Source: a virus (taxonomy: Duplodnaviria > Heunggongvirae > Uroviricota > Caudoviricetes). Taken from it: a DNA stretch of 61,798 nucleotides. The notes under the pieces were generated by a model. The model made no database searches, was not told where the DNA came from, and saw only the letters and a program-made list of their open reading frames with translations. The position numbers and the translations under genes were made by a program. The DNA lies in the IMG/VR virus record IMGVR_UViG_3300033233_000007; one strand, 5' to 3'. Of this stretch, positions 6,243-60,418 are shown piece by piece (positions within the stretch are counted from its first letter, which is position 1; every line of letters begins with the position of its first letter).

Positions 6243-6988
6243 TGCCATTTTTTATGCCCTCGTTCGTCACGACGCGCGACGCCTACACGCCGCAGCAATC
6301 TTCGCGCGTTGAGGCCGGCTATCGCGGGGCGCCGATCTACTCGAGCCGCGAAATGGCCAAGGGAGTGAAGATCGATCCATACCAGGGGCCCGCCCGCGGC
6401 GTGGCCGGACTCGGGCAGGAAGTCTATCTGGGCAAGCTCAGAATGCAGACGGGCGACCGAAGCGCGCTCTTCCATCGCACGCAGGACCTGTGGACGGGTC
6501 TTGACGCGCTGAAGAAACGAATCGCAGGAATCGGCGACGACGTCTGGAAGGTCGCGCAGAACCGGGTCTCGGGCCTGCCGACGAAGACGGCGGCTCTTGC
6601 CATGGTCGAGTCCCCGTCGAAAATTCAGTCCCTCTGGGACGCGTTCGACAAGACCTGCGAGACGTCGTGGATTCCCGGCTTCGACCTCGCGTGTAACAAC
6701 GACGCTTACGCCCAACTCGTCGCCGTGATGGACGCCGCGTCGGCTCACCAGATCGTGGTTGAGCGGCACGTCGCCACCGTCCTTAATACGGTCACGACGG
6801 ACGAACAGAGAAAAATCAGAGACGTGGGGTTCCAGCGGTTCATGGAACTTCAGGTCGAGCGCGTCAAGGAGCCCGCGCCCGTCGGCGGCTTCAGTCTTGG
6901 TGGCATCCTCACGATCGCCGGCATCGGCCTCGCCGCCTTCCTCTTTCTTCCGCGCGTCAGCGAATTCATGAGAGCGGTCAAAAAGTAA
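6242..6988 (+). CDS. Putative virion membrane protein, C-terminal TM
   Basis: TAATG coupling; TM LGGILTIAGIGLAAFLFL. Confidence 0.75.
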   Translation: MPFFMPSFVTTRDAYTPQQSSRVEAGYRGAPIYSSREMAKGVKIDPYQGPARGVAGLGQEVYLGKLRMQTGDRSALFHRTQDLWTGLDALKKRIAGIGDDVWKVAQNRVSGLPTKTAALAMVESPSKIQSLWDAFDKTCETSWIPGFDLACNNDAYAQLVAVMDAASAHQIVVERHVATVLNTVTTDEQRKIRDVGFQRFMELQVERVKEPAPVGGFSLGGILTIAGIGLAAFLFLPRVSEFMRAVKK

Positions 6989-9039
6989 TGGCCACCATCG
7001 ACGCAGACCTTCGCGAGCACCTCGGCCCCGACGCCGTGCCGCAGAGCATCGAGCGCAATCCGCTTCTCATGGCGGTGAGAAACCCGGTCGAGATCACGCC
7101 GGCAAACGTGGAAGACTACGGCGGGCGATATATCGAGACGACGCACGGCGACATGAAGATGACCCACTACGGCCCCGGAAGTTTTTACATCACGCTCACG
7201 CCGATCGTGAAAGGCGAAAAAGCGACCCGCGATCTCACGTGGGGGCCTATCGGCAAGAACAAGGCGATTGAGATCATGAACCGCCTCATCTCGGACAAGC
7301 CGCTTCGCGGAAATCCGATCCAGTGGACGCCGGGCGTCGGATACGAAGACGTGCCGGCGCGCGGAAATCGCATCATCGGCCAAGCGACGTCTCATGTCGT
7401 GAAACGTCCCTTTGGTCGCAGCTACTACTATTGGAGTTGGAAGGGTCAGACGGCCCCGCGCGGCCCCGTGGGGGCTGCAGGTTTTCTGACAGGCGACGAG
7501 ATGATTGATATGCAAACTGGGGAGGTGTTCGTGCGCGAAAATCCGCTTCTCATGGCCGTGTCAAACCCCGGTCCCGTCGAAGTCACGTTCGTGGACCAAA
7601 CGGGGACGAGGACCGTGCGCGCCCGCGTCGGCGGCGACGTCACGGTCCGCAGCATCCTGCCCGCGATCATCACGCGCATGGGCCTGCCGACGACGAGTCC
7701 TGACGGCCAGGCCATGAGCTATTCGCTGGATTACAAGGAAGGCGGGGTCCGCCTTTTGGAAGATCAGACGCTTGCAGACGCCGGCGTCGTCACGGGTCAT
7801 CACCTCATTGTCTTCCCGGAGATCGTGGCGGGGAATCCTGTACATGTTTGCTGCAATCCGCGCACGGGCGTGTGCGACAACCCGCGGCATAGAAATCCGC
7901 TGGACGCTAGAGAAAAATCCGACGTCATCAGCCGCGCGGCTTCCGCATACAGCCGCTCCGCCGTCGCTCCTCGAAGGATCGACGCGGAATACTATCGCGG
8001 GTACGGCCGCGGCATGATGGACGTCGCGGACAGGCATTCGGCCGCGGAGACATATTATCCCGTCGCCGCCAATCCAAAGCGCGCGGGCGGCGTTACCGTT
8101 CTTCCGTACCGCTGGATCGCATCTCTCGAAGAGGCCGGGATCAGGGTTCCTTCCTACGGAGTTTCGGGTCACATGGCCGCTTTCAAGAGGCCCGTGCCTC
8201 TGGCCCACGTCAAGACTATGCTTGAAGAGTACGCGCAAAAGAAGTTGAAGGGACTCCCTCGAGTGGCAGACTTTCTGACCAGGCAGGAGCGGAAGGCGGT
8301 TATTCGAGGAATGATAGATCGTGCGCTTCGCGATGCCGAAACGGGGCAGTTTCATGAAATCGAGAGAGCTTCCGGCGGCTCCAATCCGGGTGAAGACGCC
8401 CTCTTCGACAACCCCTACTACGTCGCCCACCGCGAGGCCATGCCTGCGGAGACCGACATCGTCCGCAGCCTTCGCCGTCGTCGCGACACCTTCCAGCGGT
8501 TTGAGCGTGCGCCGGGGCCCCGCTACGGCGGCGCCGTCGGGCCGTTCCGCACGGGCGACGAGGCAATCGACAGTTGGGGATGGGCCGCGCCTATGGCGAG
8601 GGGCGATGAAGAGCGTGAGATGAGGGTCGCCGCCAACCCGACGCTCGCCGCGGCGCCGTTTCATCCCGGAAAGAAAATCTCCGTAGGCGAGTTCGAGTCG
8701 TGGCTCTCCGCAAACGGCAACCCCGAGGAAAAGCGCGAGTACGAAAGGTCCAAAGCCGCGTACAAGAAGTTTCATCTTGGCGCGGAGCCGAAGTCCATCA
8801 CCCGCGAAGTCATGGACGTCGGCCTGAACCACGGCGTCGTCACGGACCGCGGCTTCGGCTACGGGCTGGGGCAGTCCACGCATGAAACGTACTTCGCGCC
8901 GAAGAATTCGAAAAAAGCGGGCACGGTCTACGTGCACAAATGGGGAACCCGACCCGAGGCCATTGCGACTTCGGACGGCCGGGTCATCATGAAGCCGCTT
9001 AAAGGCACGGCCAGGATCGACGACTGGCTGCGCGGTTAA
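6988..9039 (+). CDS. Asn-Pro-punctuated polyprotein containing a ubiquitin-like domain (7567-7833)
   Basis: 14 NP dipeptides; VEVTFVDQTG..YSL..QTLADAGV..LIVFPEIVAG resembles EsaB/YukD-type Ubl. Confidence 0.8.
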   Translation: MATIDADLREHLGPDAVPQSIERNPLLMAVRNPVEITPANVEDYGGRYIETTHGDMKMTHYGPGSFYITLTPIVKGEKATRDLTWGPIGKNKAIEIMNRLISDKPLRGNPIQWTPGVGYEDVPARGNRIIGQATSHVVKRPFGRSYYYWSWKGQTAPRGPVGAAGFLTGDEMIDMQTGEVFVRENPLLMAVSNPGPVEVTFVDQTGTRTVRARVGGDVTVRSILPAIITRMGLPTTSPDGQAMSYSLDYKEGGVRLLEDQTLADAGVVTGHHLIVFPEIVAGNPVHVCCNPRTGVCDNPRHRNPLDAREKSDVISRAASAYSRSAVAPRRIDAEYYRGYGRGMMDVADRHSAAETYYPVAANPKRAGGVTVLPYRWIASLEEAGIRVPSYGVSGHMAAFKRPVPLAHVKTMLEEYAQKKLKGLPRVADFLTRQERKAVIRGMIDRALRDAETGQFHEIERASGGSNPGEDALFDNPYYVAHREAMPAETDIVRSLRRRRDTFQRFERAPGPRYGGAVGPFRTGDEAIDSWGWAAPMARGDEEREMRVAANPTLAAAPFHPGKKISVGEFESWLSANGNPEEKREYERSKAAYKKFHLGAEPKSITREVMDVGLNHGVVTDRGFGYGLGQSTHETYFAPKNSKKAGTVYVHKWGTRPEAIATSDGRVIMKPLKGTARIDDWLRG

Positions 9040-9050
9040 GAAAAGGAGGC

Positions 9051-10517
9051 ATGAAGATGCTCGAGATGTTCGTGTTAAATCCTCCTCCGCGAAGCGCCAA
9101 ACGCAGGCGCAGCCGCCGGAATCCGTGGGAGAAAATGCGGTCTCCCGGACGTCGGTTCTGGCGGTTCCGCGGTCGGAAGGGGCAGTTCGCGAAGCGGTCG
9201 GCAGGCAAGATGAGAATGAATCCGCGCCGGCGCCGCCGGAAGAATCCGTGGGTCCACCTCACCCGCCCCGCTCGCACGTTCTACCGCTATCGCGGAGCCA
9301 AAGGAAAGTTCCGCAAGCGCGTTCGCCGTGGTCGCGCGAGCGCCTACGGTCTCAACGCTCCCCGTCGACGCCTGCGTAGGCGTCATGCGGTGCGCCGTCA
9401 TCCTCGGACGGTGTCTCGCAGGAATCCAAGGTCGAGGAAACATGGAGGCAGCAGAATGGCCAAGCGTGCCACTCGGCGTCGCCGGGGAACCCGTCGGTCG
9501 TATCGGAGGAATGCCGTTCTCCCGATCCCGGCCAACGTCAACCCGCCGCGTCGCCGCTCTCGCCGCCGCTACCGCAGTAACGCCAAGCGTGGATGGGCGC
9601 TTTACCGCTATCCCGCCCGTTCGGCGTACCACTACGGCGGCTCTCGCGGCAAGTTCATCAAGCGTCGCAAGGGCAAGCCCAGCGCCGCCGCGGCCGCGAC
9701 CGTTGTCGCGAATCCGCGCCGGCGTCGTCGGCGTCACTACGCCGCCAACGTCAGCCGATCCGCCCCCCGTCGCCGTTACGCCAAGCGCCGGTCCCACGCC
9801 CGCCGCAATCCCTATCGCGGCCCGTGGAGCTACCGCCGCAAGGCGTATCGCGTTCCGGGTGGTCGCATCCGCGTTCGCCGGCACCACTACCGCAAGCCGG
9901 GGTATCGCCGGAATCCGATCCTGCCGTTCCCCGTCGAGGTCGGCCTGAACCCGTACGCGGGTAACAACGTCCTCGCGGGTGTCGTCGCCCCGTTCCAGCG
10001 GGCCATGGACTTGTCCTTCGTCACCGGAGAACTCCTGCCCATGGCGGGCGGTTACTTCGGCTCGAAGGCCGTGGGTCGCATGGCCACGGACCTCGTGGGC
10101 GTTCCGTACGACGGCGTGTACAAGTACGTCGCCAACCTTCTGGGCGCGGGCGTCCTTTCCACGGGCGTCAGCATGTTCCTGAAGGATTCGGCGATGGCCA
10201 GTCGCGTCCTCGGCGGAGGCCTGTTCGCGATCTTCGTTGACCTGCTGAAGGATATCGGCGTCACCGGCGCTCTCGGCATCGGCGACCTCGGCGACATCAG
10301 CGATTCGATGAAGAGTCAGATCGTCGACAGCGTCCGCGCGCAACTCCACGGCACGGACGACTACCTCACGTACGAAGCGTACGGCGGTTCGCCTCGTCTG
10401 GCGGACTACGCGTCGGCGGAAGCCCTCAACGCCGCGCCTCATCTGGCGCAGGCCGCGGGCGGCGTCGCGAACATGTCGACCTACGTTGACGAGTTCTCCG
10501 ACGCTCAGTTGGTGTAA
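9051..10517 (+). CDS. Arg-rich protamine-like core protein with RRNP repeats and C-terminal membrane domain
   Basis: Extreme Arg content in N-terminal 60 percent, 10 NP sites, hydrophobic helices C-terminally. Confidence 0.8.
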   Translation: MKMLEMFVLNPPPRSAKRRRSRRNPWEKMRSPGRRFWRFRGRKGQFAKRSAGKMRMNPRRRRRKNPWVHLTRPARTFYRYRGAKGKFRKRVRRGRASAYGLNAPRRRLRRRHAVRRHPRTVSRRNPRSRKHGGSRMAKRATRRRRGTRRSYRRNAVLPIPANVNPPRRRSRRRYRSNAKRGWALYRYPARSAYHYGGSRGKFIKRRKGKPSAAAAATVVANPRRRRRRHYAANVSRSAPRRRYAKRRSHARRNPYRGPWSYRRKAYRVPGGRIRVRRHHYRKPGYRRNPILPFPVEVGLNPYAGNNVLAGVVAPFQRAMDLSFVTGELLPMAGGYFGSKAVGRMATDLVGVPYDGVYKYVANLLGAGVLSTGVSMFLKDSAMASRVLGGGLFAIFVDLLKDIGVTGALGIGDLGDISDSMKSQIVDSVRAQLHGTDDYLTYEAYGGSPRLADYASAEALNAAPHLAQAAGGVANMSTYVDEFSDAQLV

Positions 10518-10550: not shown

Positions 10551-11450
10551 ATGATCGGTCAAGTCACGGCTCCGGCTCGTCCCGGTGCCGCACCGGCCGG
10601 CGTCCAGTACATCGTCGGGACGCCCCCGCAGACGCCGGTTCTCCGGCCTCTGCGCCAGCCGATTTTCGATTCCGAGCTTCTGCCGGGCGCGCCGGCGACG
10701 TTCGGTGAGACCCAGATTCACGTCGACCCGCGGAACTTCGCGTTGACCGGCGCCCCCAAGGGCCCGGCCGACACGAACATGACGCAGCCGTCGAGCCTGG
10801 GTACGCCGCTGGAGTTCGATCTGGTCGGCTTCAACTTCCAGATCAACCGCGGCGTCTCGCGCGTGAACAGCAACACGGTGTACAACAACGGCGCGTACGA
10901 GTGGATTTTCGGACAGTCCACGCGCTGGCTGAACACCCAGTTGTCGCGCGTGCCCGAGGGCGTCGCGGCCTTCGGCAGCGTCTCGACCGCCGTGGCCGGC
11001 ACGGAGGCGTCCATTCTGTCGAATGGGTGGCCTCAAGTCACAAATCTCTTCAACTTCACGACGCCCGACAGGCTCGCCCGTCGGATCACGTCGACGGAGT
11101 CGTTCAGATTGATCCTGCGGTTCAATGCGGCCACCGCGTTCACCGCTGGTACTGGTGACACGCGGTTGACTAACTTTATGTTGGGCATTCTGTGAAGAAG
11201 TGCAGCGCCATTGGGCGACTGATGGTGGAAAACCTGAATATCGGGGGAACTCTCGGTTTATTGACCGAGACAATCTCCGACGCGTCAACGGCTCAGCCGC
11301 ACGCGCGAGAGACTGACAAGGGCGTCTCGCTTAACGAGACGATGATACAGTCCGACCTCCACGGCGACGTGGAGAGCGGGTCGGAAACGACTCGCCGCCT
11401 GACGTTTGTCGTCAGGTCCAGCAAGCAACAGCCCAGACAGCCAACTGTAA
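10551..11450 (+). CDS. Putative single-jelly-roll major capsid protein, join(10551..11193,11437..11450)
   Basis: Beta-rich, GPADTNMTQPSSLGTPLEFDL motif; splicing gives ...MLGILYSQL*. Confidence 0.7.
11194..11436 (+). ncRNA. Group I self-splicing intron, ORF-less, 243 nt
   Basis: P1 CUGU/GCAG with U-G pair; P4 UCGGGG/CUCCGA; P7 GACUG(11311-15)/CAGUC(11348-52); P8; P9 hairpins; terminal G; restores frame. Confidence 0.9.
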
Positions 11451-11506: not shown

Positions 11507-11561
11507 GACCCCCTCCGAAAGGAGGGGGTCGCCTTGGGCCCTGGAAATCAGGGTCCAAGGC
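11507..11561 (+). promoter_or_regulatory. Two strong hairpins ahead of the HNH gene; second sequesters AAGG RBS
   Basis: GACCCCCTCC-GAAA-GGAGGGGGTC and GCCTTGGGCCCTG-GAAAT-CAGGGTCCAAGGC. Confidence 0.6.
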
Positions 11562-11566
11562 GACCA

Positions 11567-12511
11567 ATGGCAAAGACGAAAGAGGAGCGCAGGGCGTACG
11601 CGAAGGCGTACTATGCGGCTAACAAGAAGAAGTTCGTCGAGTACAACCGCGCGTACCACGAGGCGCACAGGAAAGACCGTCTCGAATACCACGCGGCGTA
11701 CCACGCGAAAAACCGCGCCGCACAGAATGAAAAGCGCAAGGCCTATCACACGGAGCACAAGGAAGCCGATAACGCCAACGCGTGCAGGTACCGTACACGC
11801 AGGCCGGAGTTCATCAAGGAGATCGGCGCCAAGTATCGTGCCGAACATCGTGAAGAGGCAAGACGTCGAGCCGCAGAGTGGCACGACGGCATGACCACTT
11901 TCGTCAAGACTGCGCTCGGCGGAAAGTGCGGTTGCTGCTCCGTCGCCGAGTACGAGTTCTTGACGCTCGACCATATTGCTAGCGATGGCGGCGGGTCTGT
12001 GAAAAAACGCGGCAGCAATCACTACGCTTACCGTGAAGTTGAACTCGCGTTCAAGAGCGGCGACCTGAAGGCCATTGAGAAAGTGAAGACTCGTTTTGAA
12101 AATCTCTGTTGGAATTGTAACCTGTCCAAGAGAAACGAAGGAATCTGCCGCCATCGCCGCGGACCTCGCTCGGACGATGGACTGAGCCCGGCCGGCGTCA
12201 ACTACCGCAAGCTCAGCCGCGAAGTTCGTACGCTTCTCGGAGCCAGGTGCGTCTGTTGCGGCGAAGACGGTGATGTCGAATTTCTGGCCGTCGATCATGT
12301 CCAGAACGATGGCCATTTCGAGAAGAAAAATAAGAACGGAAGCCGTGAAGTGCAGAGCTACTACGCCGCGATCGTCCGCGCCTTCCGGTCAAATGACTCT
12401 GAGAAGGTTGCCGCCGTGAAGGCGCGTTTCGCCGTAAGATGCCATAACTGCAACGAAAGCAAGCACTATGGCAAAGGACTCTGCATCCACGAACGGAAAG
12501 CCTGCGCCTAG
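11567..12511 (+). CDS. Free-standing homing endonuclease with two tandem HNH/His-Me domains
   Basis: Two CxCC..DH..N..C..CN motifs after a basic helical repeat N-terminus. Confidence 0.85.
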   Translation: MAKTKEERRAYAKAYYAANKKKFVEYNRAYHEAHRKDRLEYHAAYHAKNRAAQNEKRKAYHTEHKEADNANACRYRTRRPEFIKEIGAKYRAEHREEARRRAAEWHDGMTTFVKTALGGKCGCCSVAEYEFLTLDHIASDGGGSVKKRGSNHYAYREVELAFKSGDLKAIEKVKTRFENLCWNCNLSKRNEGICRHRRGPRSDDGLSPAGVNYRKLSREVRTLLGARCVCCGEDGDVEFLAVDHVQNDGHFEKKNKNGSREVQSYYAAIVRAFRSNDSEKVAAVKARFAVRCHNCNESKHYGKGLCIHERKACA

Positions 12512-14854: not shown

Positions 14855-15214
14855 ATGAGCGGATATTCGACATACTTCAGCGGTCCAACGCAGGGCATGG
14901 GCACGGCCTCGTTCGGGTCGATGACGTTCGACATGACGAGCGCCGGGGCCTTTATGATCCCGTATCGACCGTCGTATCCGCCCAGAGACGTCGCCATCAA
15001 CCTGTCGGCCATCGGAGCGCCGCCGAATGCGACGTTCTTGAGTTCAGATCAGTTTCCTTTTCCCGGCATCGGGATATCCGGCAATTTGGGAAATACGATT
15101 ACCCTGACGATCATGTCTATTGCCGGCGGTGTCATGACCGGAACGATCACGGCCAACGCCCTTGTTGCCGGGGAGCTGGCGCGAATGGACTTTGTTGGAT
15201 TTGGGCAGTTCTAA
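14855..15214 (+). CDS. Spike-family paralog (MSGYSTYF)
   Basis: Shared N-terminal motif, beta-rich. Confidence 0.7.
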   Translation: MSGYSTYFSGPTQGMGTASFGSMTFDMTSAGAFMIPYRPSYPPRDVAINLSAIGAPPNATFLSSDQFPFPGIGISGNLGNTITLTIMSIAGGVMTGTITANALVAGELARMDFVGFGQF

Positions 15215-15215
15215 C

Positions 15216-16154
15216 ATGAAAGGCAACTACGAATTCTTCAGTCTGTTGTCCGGTGGAGTCGTACCCGGCGGCGGTAACGTCGTGTATTCGACCCGGACTA
15301 CGATGGTCGATTCCGTCAACGGCAACGACGCGACGGGCCAGTTCGGGCGGCTCGACAAGCCCTATAAGACGATTCAGGCGGCTCTCAATGCCATTCCCGC
15401 CGCTACGGACGCGGTGTCGTCCAAGAGGGTCTTTGTCGTGTATATCTCCCCAGCGGATTACGACGAGGACTTGACGATTGACATGGCGGGTAAGCGGATC
15501 GTTCTGGCGTCGCTCGGGCCTTGGGGCCTTGGCACGTTCAACGCCGTGGATTGGGGACCGTCCGGCACGCGCCGTAACATCATGCTCACGGGCTTCGGGG
15601 CCGCGATTAATGGGATCAGGCCCGGCTTCGCCATCATGGGCGCGCCGTTCGGCGAGGGCCTCACGACGCACGAGAGCTATCTGGCCCGACCTCGCATCAG
15701 CGGCAAGATCGACCTGACGGCGATGACCGGCCTCACCGAACTTCTGCTGGCCTGTGAAGTCTTCGGCACGAATAGTGGCCCGACGGGTGATTCCGTTGTG
15801 GCCGGTCCCGTCATCATCCAAAGCTATATTTATCATTCGCGCTTTCGGGGAAAGCTCACGGGCGTAAACTGGAATTTTCAGGTCAACGAGCGCACGCGCT
15901 TTGGCGGACTTGTCAGCATCAGCGGTTACTCGACGATCCTGTCGTGTCGGTTCGACAGCGGCATGACGACCGCAAGCGCCGGTAATGCCGGAATTTTGCC
16001 CGGTGGATTCTACGATTCCGATTTCGCCGGGACATTTACCGGCCCGGTGGCCTCTCTGAGACTCGACGGGGCGACGAACTACTGGTTCAAGACCAACGGG
16101 GCCGTTCTGGCGGGCGGGGCTACGAAAGTCATTCAGGACGATCTGGTGCCATAG
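15216..16154 (+). CDS. Spike/receptor-binding protein, beta-helix-like
   Basis: VDSVNGNDATG..PYKTIQAALNA motif typical of pectin-lyase-like N-termini. Confidence 0.7.
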   Translation: MKGNYEFFSLLSGGVVPGGGNVVYSTRTTMVDSVNGNDATGQFGRLDKPYKTIQAALNAIPAATDAVSSKRVFVVYISPADYDEDLTIDMAGKRIVLASLGPWGLGTFNAVDWGPSGTRRNIMLTGFGAAINGIRPGFAIMGAPFGEGLTTHESYLARPRISGKIDLTAMTGLTELLLACEVFGTNSGPTGDSVVAGPVIIQSYIYHSRFRGKLTGVNWNFQVNERTRFGGLVSISGYSTILSCRFDSGMTTASAGNAGILPGGFYDSDFAGTFTGPVASLRLDGATNYWFKTNGAVLAGGATKVIQDDLVP

Positions 16155-18283: not shown

Positions 18284-18738
18284 CAAGCGTCTGGGCCATA
18301 AAGCAATTCTCCAAAGGCACCGGCCTCTGGGAAGGCGTGAAGTGCTGGATGACGGATCAACCGCACGAACAGAAGTTCATCGACCAATGGGCTTTGGCGA
18401 TGCACGGCGTCGTGGCGGTGGCGGGCCTCGGGCTCGGGCTGGCGATCTCCGCTCTTGTCAAATTGCCCGTCGAGAAAATAATTGTGATCGAGAAAAGCTC
18501 CGGCGTGATCGACTTGTGGCCGACGTCGCCGTATTACACGAATGACACGAGAATCTCCGTGATTCATGGCGACGCGGCGCTCGCGCCTATCGCAAAATGC
18601 GACTCCGCGTGGCTTGATATTTGGCCCACGGCTCCGACCGAAGTCGAGTGGCGTTCTTTGGCGACGGCCTACGCCGCCAAAGGCGCAAAGTCCGTCGTGG
18701 TCTGGCCTCGCGGTTCGGTTTTGACGGAGACGACATGA
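18280..18738 (+). CDS. SAM-dependent methyltransferase-fold (spermidine-synthase-like) protein
   Basis: VAVAGLGLG, VIEKS, HGDA, WLDIWP motifs. Confidence 0.65.
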   Translation: MTSVWAIKQFSKGTGLWEGVKCWMTDQPHEQKFIDQWALAMHGVVAVAGLGLGLAISALVKLPVEKIIVIEKSSGVIDLWPTSPYYTNDTRISVIHGDAALAPIAKCDSAWLDIWPTAPTEVEWRSLATAYAAKGAKSVVVWPRGSVLTETT

Positions 18739-19220
18739 AAGGCAACTTCAGCTATCTCGGCCCCACGACCTACTCTTCTGGAGGTGGCGGAGGCGGGGGG
18801 CAAGAAGCGTTTCTAACGTACACATTCGCAGGCGGTGATCTGATGCCGCAAACTCAAAACCCCGGTTTTGACGCTACGAGAATTCAAGTGCAGATGGGAC
18901 CGTTTACTATAGGCCCCACGGACATTGGGGTAATGTCATACTTCGCCTTGGGGACGTTTCCTGTTGGCGCACCGAATCTTGCGACTCTTCAAGCCATAGA
19001 ACATTTCGTAACGACCGCATCTGCAGTTCCCGGCGTGCCGCCGTTTCAGTCTACTGCTTCCGGCTCATTTGGAAATGTTATCGACATAAGAAACAACGTC
19101 TTGGGCATTGTGTTCACCGCAACGGTCGTAAAGACCGCTACGGGGATCGAAATTACCCCCAGCGTCAACACATTCGCGGGGCGGGGAGATTTCGTGTCAA
19201 TCGGGATGCTCGTGCGCTGA
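18735..19220 (+). CDS. Spike-family paralog
   Basis: MKGNFSYLG..GGGGGG. Confidence 0.7.
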   Translation: MKGNFSYLGPTTYSSGGGGGGGQEAFLTYTFAGGDLMPQTQNPGFDATRIQVQMGPFTIGPTDIGVMSYFALGTFPVGAPNLATLQAIEHFVTTASAVPGVPPFQSTASGSFGNVIDIRNNVLGIVFTATVVKTATGIEITPSVNTFAGRGDFVSIGMLVR

Positions 19221-32196: not shown

Positions 32197-33603
32197 GTGA
32201 CCAGAAATCCCATGTACGAATCCCCGCGCAGTCGCCGGCTTCGCTTCGACCTCGAGGGCATGAAGCGCTTGAAGGCGGAAAGTACGATCTTCGGCTTCAC
32301 GGCGACCGGCGATCCGCCGGAGCGGTATGTCGTCACGTTCAAAGGCAAGAGTTTTTCCGGGCCCGATAAGGTCGTCAACCATCAGGAAATCGAAATCGAC
32401 CTGGGTGCGGAGTACCCCCGAGGCATGCCTAACATCCAATGGAAGAGCAAAGTCTTCCACCCCAACATTTCGTCAAACGGCGGCGTGTGCCTCGGCAACT
32501 ACTTCTCCGAGTGGTCGCCTGCAGCCGGCGTCGTGGGCATCTGCGGCATTCTCTGGGACATGGCCCGATGGGCCAACTTCAACATCAACAGCCCCTATAA
32601 CGGCGACGCCGCTATGTGGTTTCGCCATCAAACGAAGTACCGCTTCCCCATTGACGTGCGATCCCTCAGAGACAAGGTTGACCCGCCATCGGACGCCGTG
32701 TCATCGAAGCCCGCGTGCGCGTCGCCGCCGGATGAGGATATTCTTATCATTGAGAATCCGCCTCCTCCGCTTCAGGACGGCGACCGCGTTCGTCATCTCC
32801 GAAAAGAGGGATGGGTCGGCACGGTCGAGCACGTTGGCCATCCTATCGGCGGGTTTAAGGGCGTGTCGGTTCTGTGGGATCACCAAGCCATGCTCGGGCC
32901 CGACCCATCGGTGCGGCCGTCCGATGTCGTGAAGATTTCGGAGAACCCGCGTGTGCCTCGGTCGGGCAAACCGAGATCGTGGATGCCGAAGATGGTGCAG
33001 TGGAGTTTCCACGAGCCCGCGGCAAAGGACATCCAAGCCCATCTCCGTTCTTTCGGCCTTTACGCCGACATCTCGATGCAAAGCAGACGCATCCGCGAGG
33101 AGCCGTACGTCGAACACGTCTACAGGGTCATCGTACCCGCGTGGCAACTCGATCAGGCCAAGAGAATCCTGAAATCTGGAAAACACGGATGGAACCCGCT
33201 GACCGCGGACGAGCGCGCCACCCTTCAGCGCCGCAGCGCCTCTTTCGCCCGCCGTGCCGACGACTACCCGCTCGACACGCCGCACCGTGCTTACTGGACC
33301 GCGCGGCAACATGAGGCGAGGACGTTGTCGGAAGCGGCGGACGTGGCCGACCTCGAACTGCCCAACGCCGTCGCCGCGAATCCCGACGACCTCTTCTGGA
33401 AAGTCCGCGACTGGCTCGACAATCTTTCCGACATCGCCGACCTCCATAGAGAGAAGTACCCCCACGAGTCCGTGAAGACCGCGCTGCGTTACGCCGAACG
33501 CGTCATGCTCTCCCGCTATGGCCGCCCCGATCCCGAGTTCTTGAAAGAGGCCAGGCGGCAGATCGGAGAACTCAGAGAATTCGCAGAGTCGGAGGGAGCG
33601 TAG
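32197..33603 (+). CDS. NP-punctuated polyprotein with N-terminal E2/UBC domain
   Basis: EYPRGMP..FHPNISSNGGVCLG (catalytic Cys codon 32488-90)..SPYNGDAA. Confidence 0.9.
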   Translation: MTRNPMYESPRSRRLRFDLEGMKRLKAESTIFGFTATGDPPERYVVTFKGKSFSGPDKVVNHQEIEIDLGAEYPRGMPNIQWKSKVFHPNISSNGGVCLGNYFSEWSPAAGVVGICGILWDMARWANFNINSPYNGDAAMWFRHQTKYRFPIDVRSLRDKVDPPSDAVSSKPACASPPDEDILIIENPPPPLQDGDRVRHLRKEGWVGTVEHVGHPIGGFKGVSVLWDHQAMLGPDPSVRPSDVVKISENPRVPRSGKPRSWMPKMVQWSFHEPAAKDIQAHLRSFGLYADISMQSRRIREEPYVEHVYRVIVPAWQLDQAKRILKSGKHGWNPLTADERATLQRRSASFARRADDYPLDTPHRAYWTARQHEARTLSEAADVADLELPNAVAANPDDLFWKVRDWLDNLSDIADLHREKYPHESVKTALRYAERVMLSRYGRPDPEFLKEARRQIGELREFAESEGA

Positions 33604-39795: not shown

Positions 39796-40017
39796 ATGAA
39801 CTGGAGCTTCGACGACCACGGGCGTCTCCGCGCGTCGATGCGGAGTGTTCCGGGCGTACTTATCGACATTGTGTTTAGAACTGGACAAGACGTCGGCTTC
39901 GGGAAAACCGAGGGGACGTCGATCCGTGAAGGCCGCGTCAACGGCGGCGTGCTGGGCGTCTTGTACTGGCCCGGTGATCCGGCCGTCGTCCACAGCGTTT
40001 GGTGGGTGAATCCTTGA
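39796..40017 (+). CDS. Hypothetical protein
   Basis: ORF; start uncertain. Confidence 0.45.
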   Translation: MNWSFDDHGRLRASMRSVPGVLIDIVFRTGQDVGFGKTEGTSIREGRVNGGVLGVLYWPGDPAVVHSVWWVNP

Positions 40018-59548: not shown

Positions 59549-59762
59549 CGGATTCTCCTTTCAACTTTACGTCACGAAGCGTGTTGATCGTGTTTGTGCG
59601 TCCGCATTTCGGGCAGCGGGCGTAAAGCAAAAGGTAGTCCCCGTCCGGCGTCAGCCCGCTGAAACACATGGCCAGCTTACATCTCGGGCAGGCCAAGACG
59701 GCGCCGTCGAGGTCGTCCAAATACAGGATGCGGCCGGTCGTGGAGCCGCGGTCATGGGGCAT
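59538..59762 (-). CDS. Zn-ribbon protein
   Basis: CPRC..CPKC. Confidence 0.6.
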   Translation of the reverse strand: MPHDRGSTTGRILYLDDLDGAVLACPRCKLAMCFSGLTPDGDYLLLYARCPKCGRTNTINTLRDVKLKGESDVP

Positions 59763-59778
59763 GGGAGGTCTCCTTTCA

Positions 59779-59979
59779 TCACACGTCGCACAAAATACAC
59801 CGAACGCGCTGCGGCGCAAACCGCACGGGCGAAAGAGGACGAAGATGCCCTCCACCGGCGTATCGTACAGCCACGTGGCCGCACGAGAGGTCGAGGTCCC
59901 ACACGCCGCCGGCTTTCGACCTGCGACGGCGGATGCACTTTACGTCGCGCCATGGGCTCATGCGCTTCATGGTCTTCAT
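59779..59979 (-). CDS. Small hypothetical protein
   Basis: LSCGH..CILC. Confidence 0.5.
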   Translation of the reverse strand: MKTMKRMSPWRDVKCIRRRRSKAGGVWDLDLSCGHVAVRYAGGGHLRPLSPVRFAPQRVRCILCDV

Positions 59980-60215
59980 GGTCTTTCCATCATCGCCCGC
60001 ATGAGGGCGTCGACGAGCCCGAACCAGCGGAGCGTGCTTTCAGGGATCGGAAATCCAGTCATGGGTAAGCAGGTGCAGCCGTCATCGGCCATCATGCAGC
60101 ACCCTTCGCACACGGCCTCGTCGGTGCCGCAGTCGTCGCCGTCATCAAGGGCCCAGAAGCCCGTGTCGAGGATGGCGCGGCGGCCGCATTCGCAGTGCCA
60201 GGGAAGAGGGGTCAT
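59976..60215 (-). CDS. Cys-rich small protein
   Basis: Coupled ORF. Confidence 0.55.
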   Translation of the reverse strand: MTPLPWHCECGRRAILDTGFWALDDGDDCGTDEAVCEGCCMMADDGCTCLPMTGFPIPESTLRWFGLVDALMRAMMERP

Positions 60216-60418
60216 GACTTTCTTCCAGATGCGTTACAAACGCGACTTTGCCAATCCATAGCTCGCTTCTTGCTGAAGATGCCGATTTCCTCAAAGGCGT
60301 AAATGGTGCCGAAAGCCGAGGCCAGCCAAGCTAATCTGTCGTCAGCCGTCGTGGCGAGCCGAAGTTGATCGATACAGAACTGGACAACAGCCCCCGGCTT
60401 CTTTTTCAGTTTGAACAT
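60212..60418 (-). CDS. Hypothetical protein
   Basis: AGGAG RBS. Confidence 0.55.
   Translation of the reverse strand: MFKLKKKPGAVVQFCIDQLRLATTADDRLAWLASAFGTIYAFEEIGIFSKKRAMDWQSRVCNASGRKS

Follow-up and report, generated by a model that had tools for sequence, protein, structure and literature searches.

A ubiquitin-like module, probably of planctomycete origin, inside an NP-punctuated modular protein of a Caudoviricetes phage

Among described systems, the best fit for the locus studied here is the group of eukaryote-like prokaryotic ubiquitin operons, which encode a ubiquitin-like protein (Ubl), an E1, an E2 of the UBC type, a small RING protein and a JAB/Rpn11-like peptidase. An operon of this kind has been reconstituted for Candidatus Caldiarchaeum subterraneum (PMC5654768). 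So far, work on Ubl conjugation in bacteria has treated it as host defence, in the Bil and Bub systems and in Cap2 of the cyclic oligonucleotide-based antiphage signaling system (CBASS), or has deduced it from operons. Here we describe a Ubl module encoded by a virus of the class Caudoviricetes (IMG/VR record IMGVR_UViG_3300033233_000007), on a stretch of 61,798 nucleotides that we refer to as the window. The module is embedded in a multi-module protein, P0002, and is followed directly by an asparagine-proline (NP) dipeptide. A free Ubl and a module of the host E2 type are encoded on the same contig. Sequence comparisons make it well supported that the Ubl was captured from a planctomycete host.

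Baculovirus v-ubi and the E2 of African swine fever virus are virus-encoded parts of host ubiquitin systems, and in pestiviruses cellular ubiquitin hydrolases cut at the C-terminus of a ubiquitin insert. Pestiviruses have repeatedly acquired ubiquitin or Ubl inserts at polyprotein junctions, in independent acquisitions and with tandem copies (PMC13517609), and E1-like genes are found in the Asgard virus Nidhogg (10.1101/2021.07.29.454249). Lambda-type TAPI has an N-terminal Ubl with a conserved terminal Gly and a further domain after it, for which release by a JAB peptidase has been predicted (PMC1779556). The Bil and Bub systems also contain N-terminally extended and fused Ubls (10.1101/2023.09.26.559546; 10.1101/2024.11.21.623953; 10.1101/2024.11.21.623966), and Bub acts via oxyester intermediates (10.1101/2024.11.21.623953). 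BilC and BubC, the JAB peptidases of these systems, cleave immediately behind the conserved Gly, be it in Ubl tails, Ubl-GFP or Ubl-E2 fusions (10.1101/2023.09.26.559546; 10.1101/2024.11.21.623953).

The initial annotation of the window placed an 89-residue beta-grasp-like module at positions 7567-7839, corresponding to residues 194-284 of P0002. The protein reads ...RENPLLMAVSNP-GPVEVTF...LIVFPEIVAG-NP-VHVCCNP... in this region, and the flanking NP sites and the VAG-NP ending are as that annotation had them. The length was approximate, the fold itself covering about 88 residues (195-282). The embedded Ubl ends in PEIVAG with NP directly after it, and a junction motif, NPLLMAVSNP, directly precedes it. 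AlphaFold2 modelling of residues 190-284, from an alignment of 44 rows, gave a predicted local distance difference test score (pLDDT) of 91 and a predicted template modelling score of 0.80. In the model, the elements follow the order strand-strand-helix-strand-strand-strand and end in a flexible tail, where pLDDT is low as in the tail of ubiquitin. The top Foldseek matches in the PDB were SUMO1, ubiquitin and the Caldiarchaeum ubiquitin (E about 3e-6, template modelling score by target about 0.8). The modelling thus confirms a predicted ubiquitin-like beta-grasp fold for residues 195-282, as proposed. Table 1 lists the features discussed in this study.

Table 1. Positions of the ubiquitin-like modules and associated features. 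Positions are those of the window, except for the free Ubl, which lies upstream of it.
Feature	Position	Strand	Details
P0002, multi-module open reading frame holding the Ubl	6988..9039	+	683 aa, uninterrupted, GC content at third codon positions 0.75, 14 NP dipeptides
First junction motif, NPLLMAVRNP	7057..7086	+	Residues 24-33
Second junction motif, NPLLMAVSNP, just before the Ubl	7540..7569	+	Residues 185-194; conserved in P0003
Ubl beta-grasp module (predicted), ends PEIVAG	7570..7833	+	Residues 195-282; Pfam, AlphaFold2, Foldseek, homology, dN/dS
Gly282 codon, predicted scissile/activated residue	7831..7833	+	Aligned with the terminal Gly of cellular Ubls
NP-dense, Cys-bearing stretch after the Ubl (NPVHVCCNPRTGVCDNPRHRNP)	7834..7899	+	Residues 283-304; conserved in P0003
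Conserved C-terminal module	8620..9036	+	Residues 545-683, about 140 aa; AlphaFold2 pLDDT 91
Complete host-type UBC/E2 module	32209..32754	+	Residues 5-186 of open reading frame 32197-33603; Pfam UQ_con E 5.6e-13
Free Ubl, ends FPEIVAG-stop	L007:1538-1810	-	90 aa; 1.2-1.5 kb before the window start, same contig

The sole Pfam match in P0002 is to YukD (PF08817; residues 197-274, E 5e-11, 43.6 bits against a cut-off of 27). It raises the question whether the module serves type VII secretion as a YukD-like accessory protein. YukD is not known to be conjugated. With YukD/EsaB the module shares the Pfam match and the beta-grasp fold, whereas its nearest solved structures are SUMO and ubiquitin and its family has a conserved terminal Gly. 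Its close relatives all adjoin E2, E1 and JAB genes, not type VII secretion genes, and no type VII secretion family was found in a Pfam scan of the 98 open reading frames (ORFs) of the window. The hosts of this Ubl family are Planctomycetota, whereas type VII secretion systems have been described from Bacillota and Actinomycetota (PMC11217815). We regard the type VII explanation as extremely improbable. Pfam's name YukD masks a large family of Ubls of the conjugation type.

The embedded Ubl retains all 28 columns that are invariant in its close family, P-E-x-x-A-G included, and Ala281 and Gly282 (alignment columns A92 and G93) are at least 90% conserved across the family. A comparison was possible with P0003, a related phage protein of 506 aa on a 5.9-kb contig (L001), in which the PEIVAG tail is identical. 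The ratio of nonsynonymous to synonymous substitution rates (dN/dS) for the embedded Ubl was 0.10 at dS 0.70, the lowest among the five ORF segments compared, and it was 0.13 for residues 283-366. The Ubl value shows strong purifying selection on the embedded copy.

When P0002 was searched exhaustively, and without a profile, against 1.8 billion representatives, 450 matches were obtained, which fell on two separately conserved parts of the protein: the Ubl and the C-terminal 140 residues. Many of the Ubl matches were 55-68% identical, with PE[IVM]x-AG as their common tail. Beyond the conserved Gly, 16 homologues end exactly, 17 have tails of up to 9 residues and 48 continue, some of them into a UBC-type E2 or an E1. 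The residue that follows the Gly is variable.

In a census of prokaryotes, with each species represented by one genome, 365 genomes had the Ubl, nearly all of them Planctomycetota, which bears out the phylum suspected in the initial annotation. Singulisphaera, Tundrisphaera, Paludisphaera and Tautonia are included, as are many metagenome-assembled genomes. The Ubls of these genomes are 67-79% identical to the free phage copy and 64-69% to the embedded one. In Planctomycetota the Ubl stands alone as a protein of about 98 aa that ends in PEVVAG or PEIVAG plus 0-3 residues, and E2, E1 (ThiF) and JAB peptidase genes adjoin it in most of the 80 loci retrieved. Gly282 of the embedded copy corresponds in the alignment to the terminal Gly of the cellular Ubls, so that the terminal Gly had been recognised correctly. 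While operon Ubls have a terminal or short-tailed Gly, 401 residues of P0002 follow Gly282.

In Singulisphaera acidiphila (L049:6864-7763 and neighbouring genes), the operon consists of a membrane RING-like gene, the Ubl, a UBC E2, an E1 and a JAB. In this one locus, which was checked individually, the product of the gene directly upstream of the Ubl has a membrane helix and a RING-like Cys/His finger. Of 60 Isosphaeraceae genomes, 54 have the Ubl, as do 18 of 201 genomes sampled across Planctomycetota; within Isosphaeraceae it is highly conserved between genera. The host operon thus looks like a core cellular system, not a patchy defence island.

A maximum-likelihood tree placed every phage Ubl inside a clade of E1-Ubl-E2-JAB loci with a support of 99/90, and the Isosphaeraceae copies form the sister group. 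We considered that the loci of this clade might themselves be phage or mobile contigs. This was ruled out by housekeeping neighbours at four of them (AIR synthase-related, T2SSE, arginase, TsaE and poly(A) polymerase genes), which mark them as cellular. Because the phage copies are nested among cellular Planctomycetota loci, their capture from a planctomycete host, as first proposed for the embedded copy, is well supported by this phylogeny. The branch of the embedded Ubl (0.68) is longer than that of the free phage copy.

The free Ubl is 69% identical to the embedded copy and is surrounded by many small ORFs on the minus strand. Among these small genes there are also one of the RNA-ligase/WGR-like kind and one with a weak Pfam match to Tad4 (anti-Thoeris) (L091:12626-13696 and 18470-18802), and their presence suggests that the region is early or serves counter-defence.

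The E2 module of the phage has HPN at residues 88-90 and a Cys at residue 98, and it is 40-52% identical to the E2s of the Planctomycetota operons. Its first residues, MYESPR, and its last, DILIIE, both resemble those of host E2s, and NP sites flank the module. Three or four more NP-bounded modules come after it in the same ORF. A predicted complex of the phage E2 with the embedded Ubl scored 0.32, the control 0.25, which speaks neither for binding nor against it.

E1 and JAB genes were searched for in the window and in 13 kb upstream of it, about 75 kb of the 125.8-kb contig. Neither was found by Pfam (98 window ORFs), by tblastn with eleven host queries, or by hidden Markov models (HMMs) from 67 host E1/JAB sequences run against six-frame translations. 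Two other phage-like contigs encode N-terminal Ubl-AG-X fusions (P0026 on L006 and P0029 on L088), and the E1/JAB HMMs found nothing on the DNA examined of these two. No related phages were found by tblastn against INPHARED or in two IMG/VR scans, and a word-index search gave one relative only, P0003.

The phage genes resemble the eukaryote-like operons in several respects. Relatives of the Ubl are encoded together with a UBC-type E2, E1 and JAB, and in S. acidiphila with a RING-like gene. The Caldiarchaeum ubiquitin is among the best structural matches, and the phage E2 has HPN and a catalytic Cys. They differ in that the embedded Ubl is internal to a 683-aa protein, in that its tail is AG and not GG, and in that the phage has just the Ubl, in two copies, and the E2 in the DNA examined.

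The initial annotation had pointed to Bil/Bub-type systems, and this assignment was not upheld. The two kinds of system do share a Gly-ended Ubl, E2 and E1 enzymes, and a JAB that removes any residues beyond the Gly. The PADLOC Bil models, however, matched neither the phage Ubls nor the phage E2, and the host E1 matched BilD weakly (E 8e-7), below its matches to the CBASS E1-E2 models. The E2s of phage and host are of the UQ_con type, with HPN and Cys invariant in the alignment, whereas Bub E2/E1 use Ser oxyesters. Bil and Bub are sparse and tied to defence regulators, in contrast to an operon that is present in 54 of the 60 Isosphaeraceae genomes and that has a RING-like gene in the locus checked. 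In the operon catalogue of 10.1101/2024.11.21.623966 we found no Planctomycetota entry of the host-operon type; the only match was a type II Bub of Gemmata.

We suggest that the embedded Ubl is still recognised by the Ubl enzymes of the host. A JAB-type peptidase, most likely that of the host, would cut after Gly282 and yield residues 1-282 with a free Gly and a C-terminal part of 401 residues. The host E1 would next activate the Gly-ended fragment and hand it to the E2 of phage or host. The embedded Ubl would thereby serve both as a processing handle operated by the host and as a source of a conjugatable tag, and, with the free Ubl and the E2 added, it would let the phage redirect or saturate the host tagging system. 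JAB peptidases cut after Gly whatever follows, and the host Ubls have tails that need trimming, so the AG-NP junction should be cut after Gly282. The NP would be the general junction of the protein family, unnecessary for the JAB cut. Judging by analogy with Bil and Bub, we put cleavage by a JAB after Gly282, with a fragment that could then be conjugated, at about an even chance.

Several points weigh against this proposal. Cleavage, charging and conjugation are all steps that we infer. As no phage E1 or JAB was found, the model needs host enzymes or genes elsewhere in the genome. The long branch of the embedded copy could reflect drift to a role in binding only, and the dense NP sites argue for another processing or junction system, which could set other module ends.

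The first of these doubts leads to an alternative in which the Ubl stays uncleaved in P0002 and works by non-covalent docking, as a binding or decoy module. Its target could be the host E1, E2, RING ligase or JAB, or the phage E2, and it would block or recruit host machinery, for instance by bringing a deconjugating JAB to phage structures. The failure to find E1 or JAB genes in the phage DNA examined fits this role, as does the longer branch of the embedded copy, given that the free copy, which ends in AG-stop, could conjugate alone. The invariant surface and core residues have been kept, and a binder of the same enzymes would need these too. Non-conjugated beta-grasp adaptors are common, for example YukD and lambda TAPI (PMC1779556). 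On the other hand, the flexible P-E-I-V-A-G tail, which is relevant to E1/JAB chemistry rather than to surface binding, is intact and identical in the related phage. An exposed Ubl-AG-X would also be hard to keep uncut in a host with a JAB, as JABs cut whatever follows the Gly. We consider an uncleaved decoy somewhat unlikely.

Processing by the host could go together with a more specific role. P0002 would be inert until the host JAB cuts it and frees the C-terminal part, like a fuse, and the host E1 and the phage E2 would then couple the N-terminal phage domain, with its Ubl, covalently to selected proteins of host or phage. This is, in our view, rather unlikely. If true, it would mean a phage running a ubiquitin-style takeover of a bacterial cell, as eukaryotic viruses do.

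The second doubt concerns NP. In P0002, 14/21 Asn precede Pro against 1.5 expected, which places NP far above chance, and across the 47 relatives having its C-terminal module 351/854 Asn are in NP against 62 expected. The ORF directly after P0002 (9051-10517) has 10/20 Asn in NP, and several ORFs near 31-36 kb are also NP-enriched. We considered NP as a DNA-level motif and ruled it out on account of the codons, which vary in the window (AAT or AAC plus CCN); the constraint therefore acts on the peptide. The junction NP-LLM[ATSV]V-x-NP recurs throughout the protein family, and NP pairs are most often spaced by 8 residues. At position -3 from the Asn, V, Y or F are favoured, and at positions -1 and -2, R or A. 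A Met is conserved inside the junction motif, and some stand-alone relatives begin with M-x-x-N-P. Three called ORFs of the window end in NP-stop (39796-40017 and 59668-60261 on the plus strand, 51934-52605 on the minus strand), where a rough estimate predicts about 0.2 among 98 ORFs.

P0003 shares both of its ends with P0002, and its inner modules differ. Residues 34-184 of P0002 (window 7090-7539) are replaced in P0003 by an unrelated Cys-rich stretch, and residues 367-474 (window 8086-8409) are missing from it. Both changes are bounded by NP sites, which suggests exchange of cassettes between related phages. The C-terminal module forms the end of at least 45 NP-rich proteins, which are 184-1352 aa long and diverse in their N-terminal parts. 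Its predicted fold found no match in a Foldseek search of the PDB, in VIA wide (best Z 3.4), in BFVD or in the Atlas. From these sequence patterns we conclude that NP is a marker of module borders in the P0002 family. The word polyprotein, used in the initial annotation, holds in the sense of a modular build with NP borders: P0002 and P0003 differ by modules that are replaced or missing, the phage E2 module is bounded by NP at its host-like ends, and, as in viral polyproteins, independent modules are joined by a recurring junction motif.

NP itself may be a cleavage site, a linker or a fusion scar. Skipping at 2A sequences is known from eukaryotes. A 2A-like reading of the SNPGP before the Ubl was set aside, as Gly follows NP at just 53/391 sites. 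We also asked whether residues 283-480 might derive from the N-terminal helix of an E2, after the tblastn alignment of a Ubl-E2 fusion overran the Ubl, and rejected this on a direct BLASTP comparison (E 0.45).

If NP is a cleavage site, NP machinery, be it a phage protease or autocleavage, could set the ends of the module at ...VAGN or ...VAGNP. The product would be a blocked Ubl, a structural or cargo part of the particle. Cleavage after Asn, Asn-Pro bonds included, is known from FlhB/YscU (NPTH) and from reovirus mu1 and speaks for this possibility. NP is strongly enriched at module borders in P0002, in the next ORF and in the whole family, the residue preferences at -3, -2 and -1 resemble a protease site, and there are the three ORFs with NP-stop ends. 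However, neither Pfam nor PHROGs identified a protease in the window, except for a weak Transglut_core match (E 8e-4), and the cleavage is a prediction. The NP may also be a linker that stays uncut, or be left over from a fusion of genes, as the Met of the junction and the M-x-x-N-P starts would allow. A host JAB could moreover trim N or NP in the same way as the natural tails of 1-3 residues, and the selective preservation of the AG tail would be left unexplained. We find it quite unlikely that NP machinery sets the ends of the Ubl.

The initial annotation had also framed the choice as one between a cut before Asn, which would free a conjugatable Gly, and a cut after it, which would yield a blocked decoy. 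This dilemma is probably beside the point, since related JABs cut directly after Gly (10.1101/2023.09.26.559546; 10.1101/2024.11.21.623953). With NP as the general junction of the family and a variable residue after the Gly, the question becomes secondary.

For host-operated cleavage after Gly282, the nearest precedent for a host Ubl at the release point of a viral polyprotein would, by analogy, be the ubiquitin inserts of cytopathogenic pestiviruses (bovine viral diarrhoea virus Osloss and others). In both, a captured host Ubl is in frame in a polyprotein, directly before the part to be released. Pestiviruses are animal RNA viruses with eukaryotic ubiquitin, and their inserts were acquired recently and go with a change of biotype, whereas here the virus is a bacterial DNA phage whose module has diverged by 30-40% from the host copies under purifying selection. 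TAPI, encoded with the JAB/NlpC protein K, is likewise a phage protein, of morphogenesis, with a Ubl that has a conserved Gly and a further domain after it. It differs in being kin to ThiS/MoaD, with the JAB encoded adjacently by the phage and no E2, in contrast to a Ubl of the host conjugation type without a phage JAB in the 75 kb. As with v-ubi, the African swine fever virus E2 and Nidhogg, a subset of the host ubiquitin pathway is carried and the host would supply the rest. Those viruses infect eukaryotes or Asgard archaea, whereas this phage has a bacterial host and a Ubl built into a modular protein.

The virion-type character that the initial annotation gave to P0002 is putative; neither Pfam nor PHROGs recognised a capsid, portal or terminase family in the window. 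Downstream of P0002, ORF 15162-16154 has a partial match to a PHROG tail protein (E 8e-11). The 488-aa product of ORF 9051-10517 has, in its first 300 residues or so, runs of Arg broken by NP (RRNP, RKNP) and repeated W/F-x-R-F/Y-R-G-x-K-G-x-F units, and then a hydrophobic C-terminal part rich in Gly and Ala. It resembles a processed core protein for DNA condensation. ORF 11534-12511 lies just past a proposed group I intron (11184-11450) and matches a PHROG HNH endonuclease (E 3e-5), compatible with a homing endonuclease.

Our literature search found no paper on phage-encoded Ubl and UBC-E2 genes of this family, which is not proof of absence. What is new is the combination: a Ubl inside an NP-punctuated modular protein, a free copy in mature form, a captured E2, and no E1 or JAB found in the DNA searched. 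The host tag has been copied twice in the phage, once in its free mature form and once built in where the host peptidase should cut, and the matching E2 has been captured whole. The phage probably taps the ubiquitin-style tagging system of its host, much as some animal viruses do, with baculovirus ubiquitin, the African swine fever virus E2 and the pestivirus ubiquitin inserts as parallels. The finding suggests that the phage exploits a ubiquitin-type system of the cell, one that is near-universal in one planctomycete family, the Isosphaeraceae.

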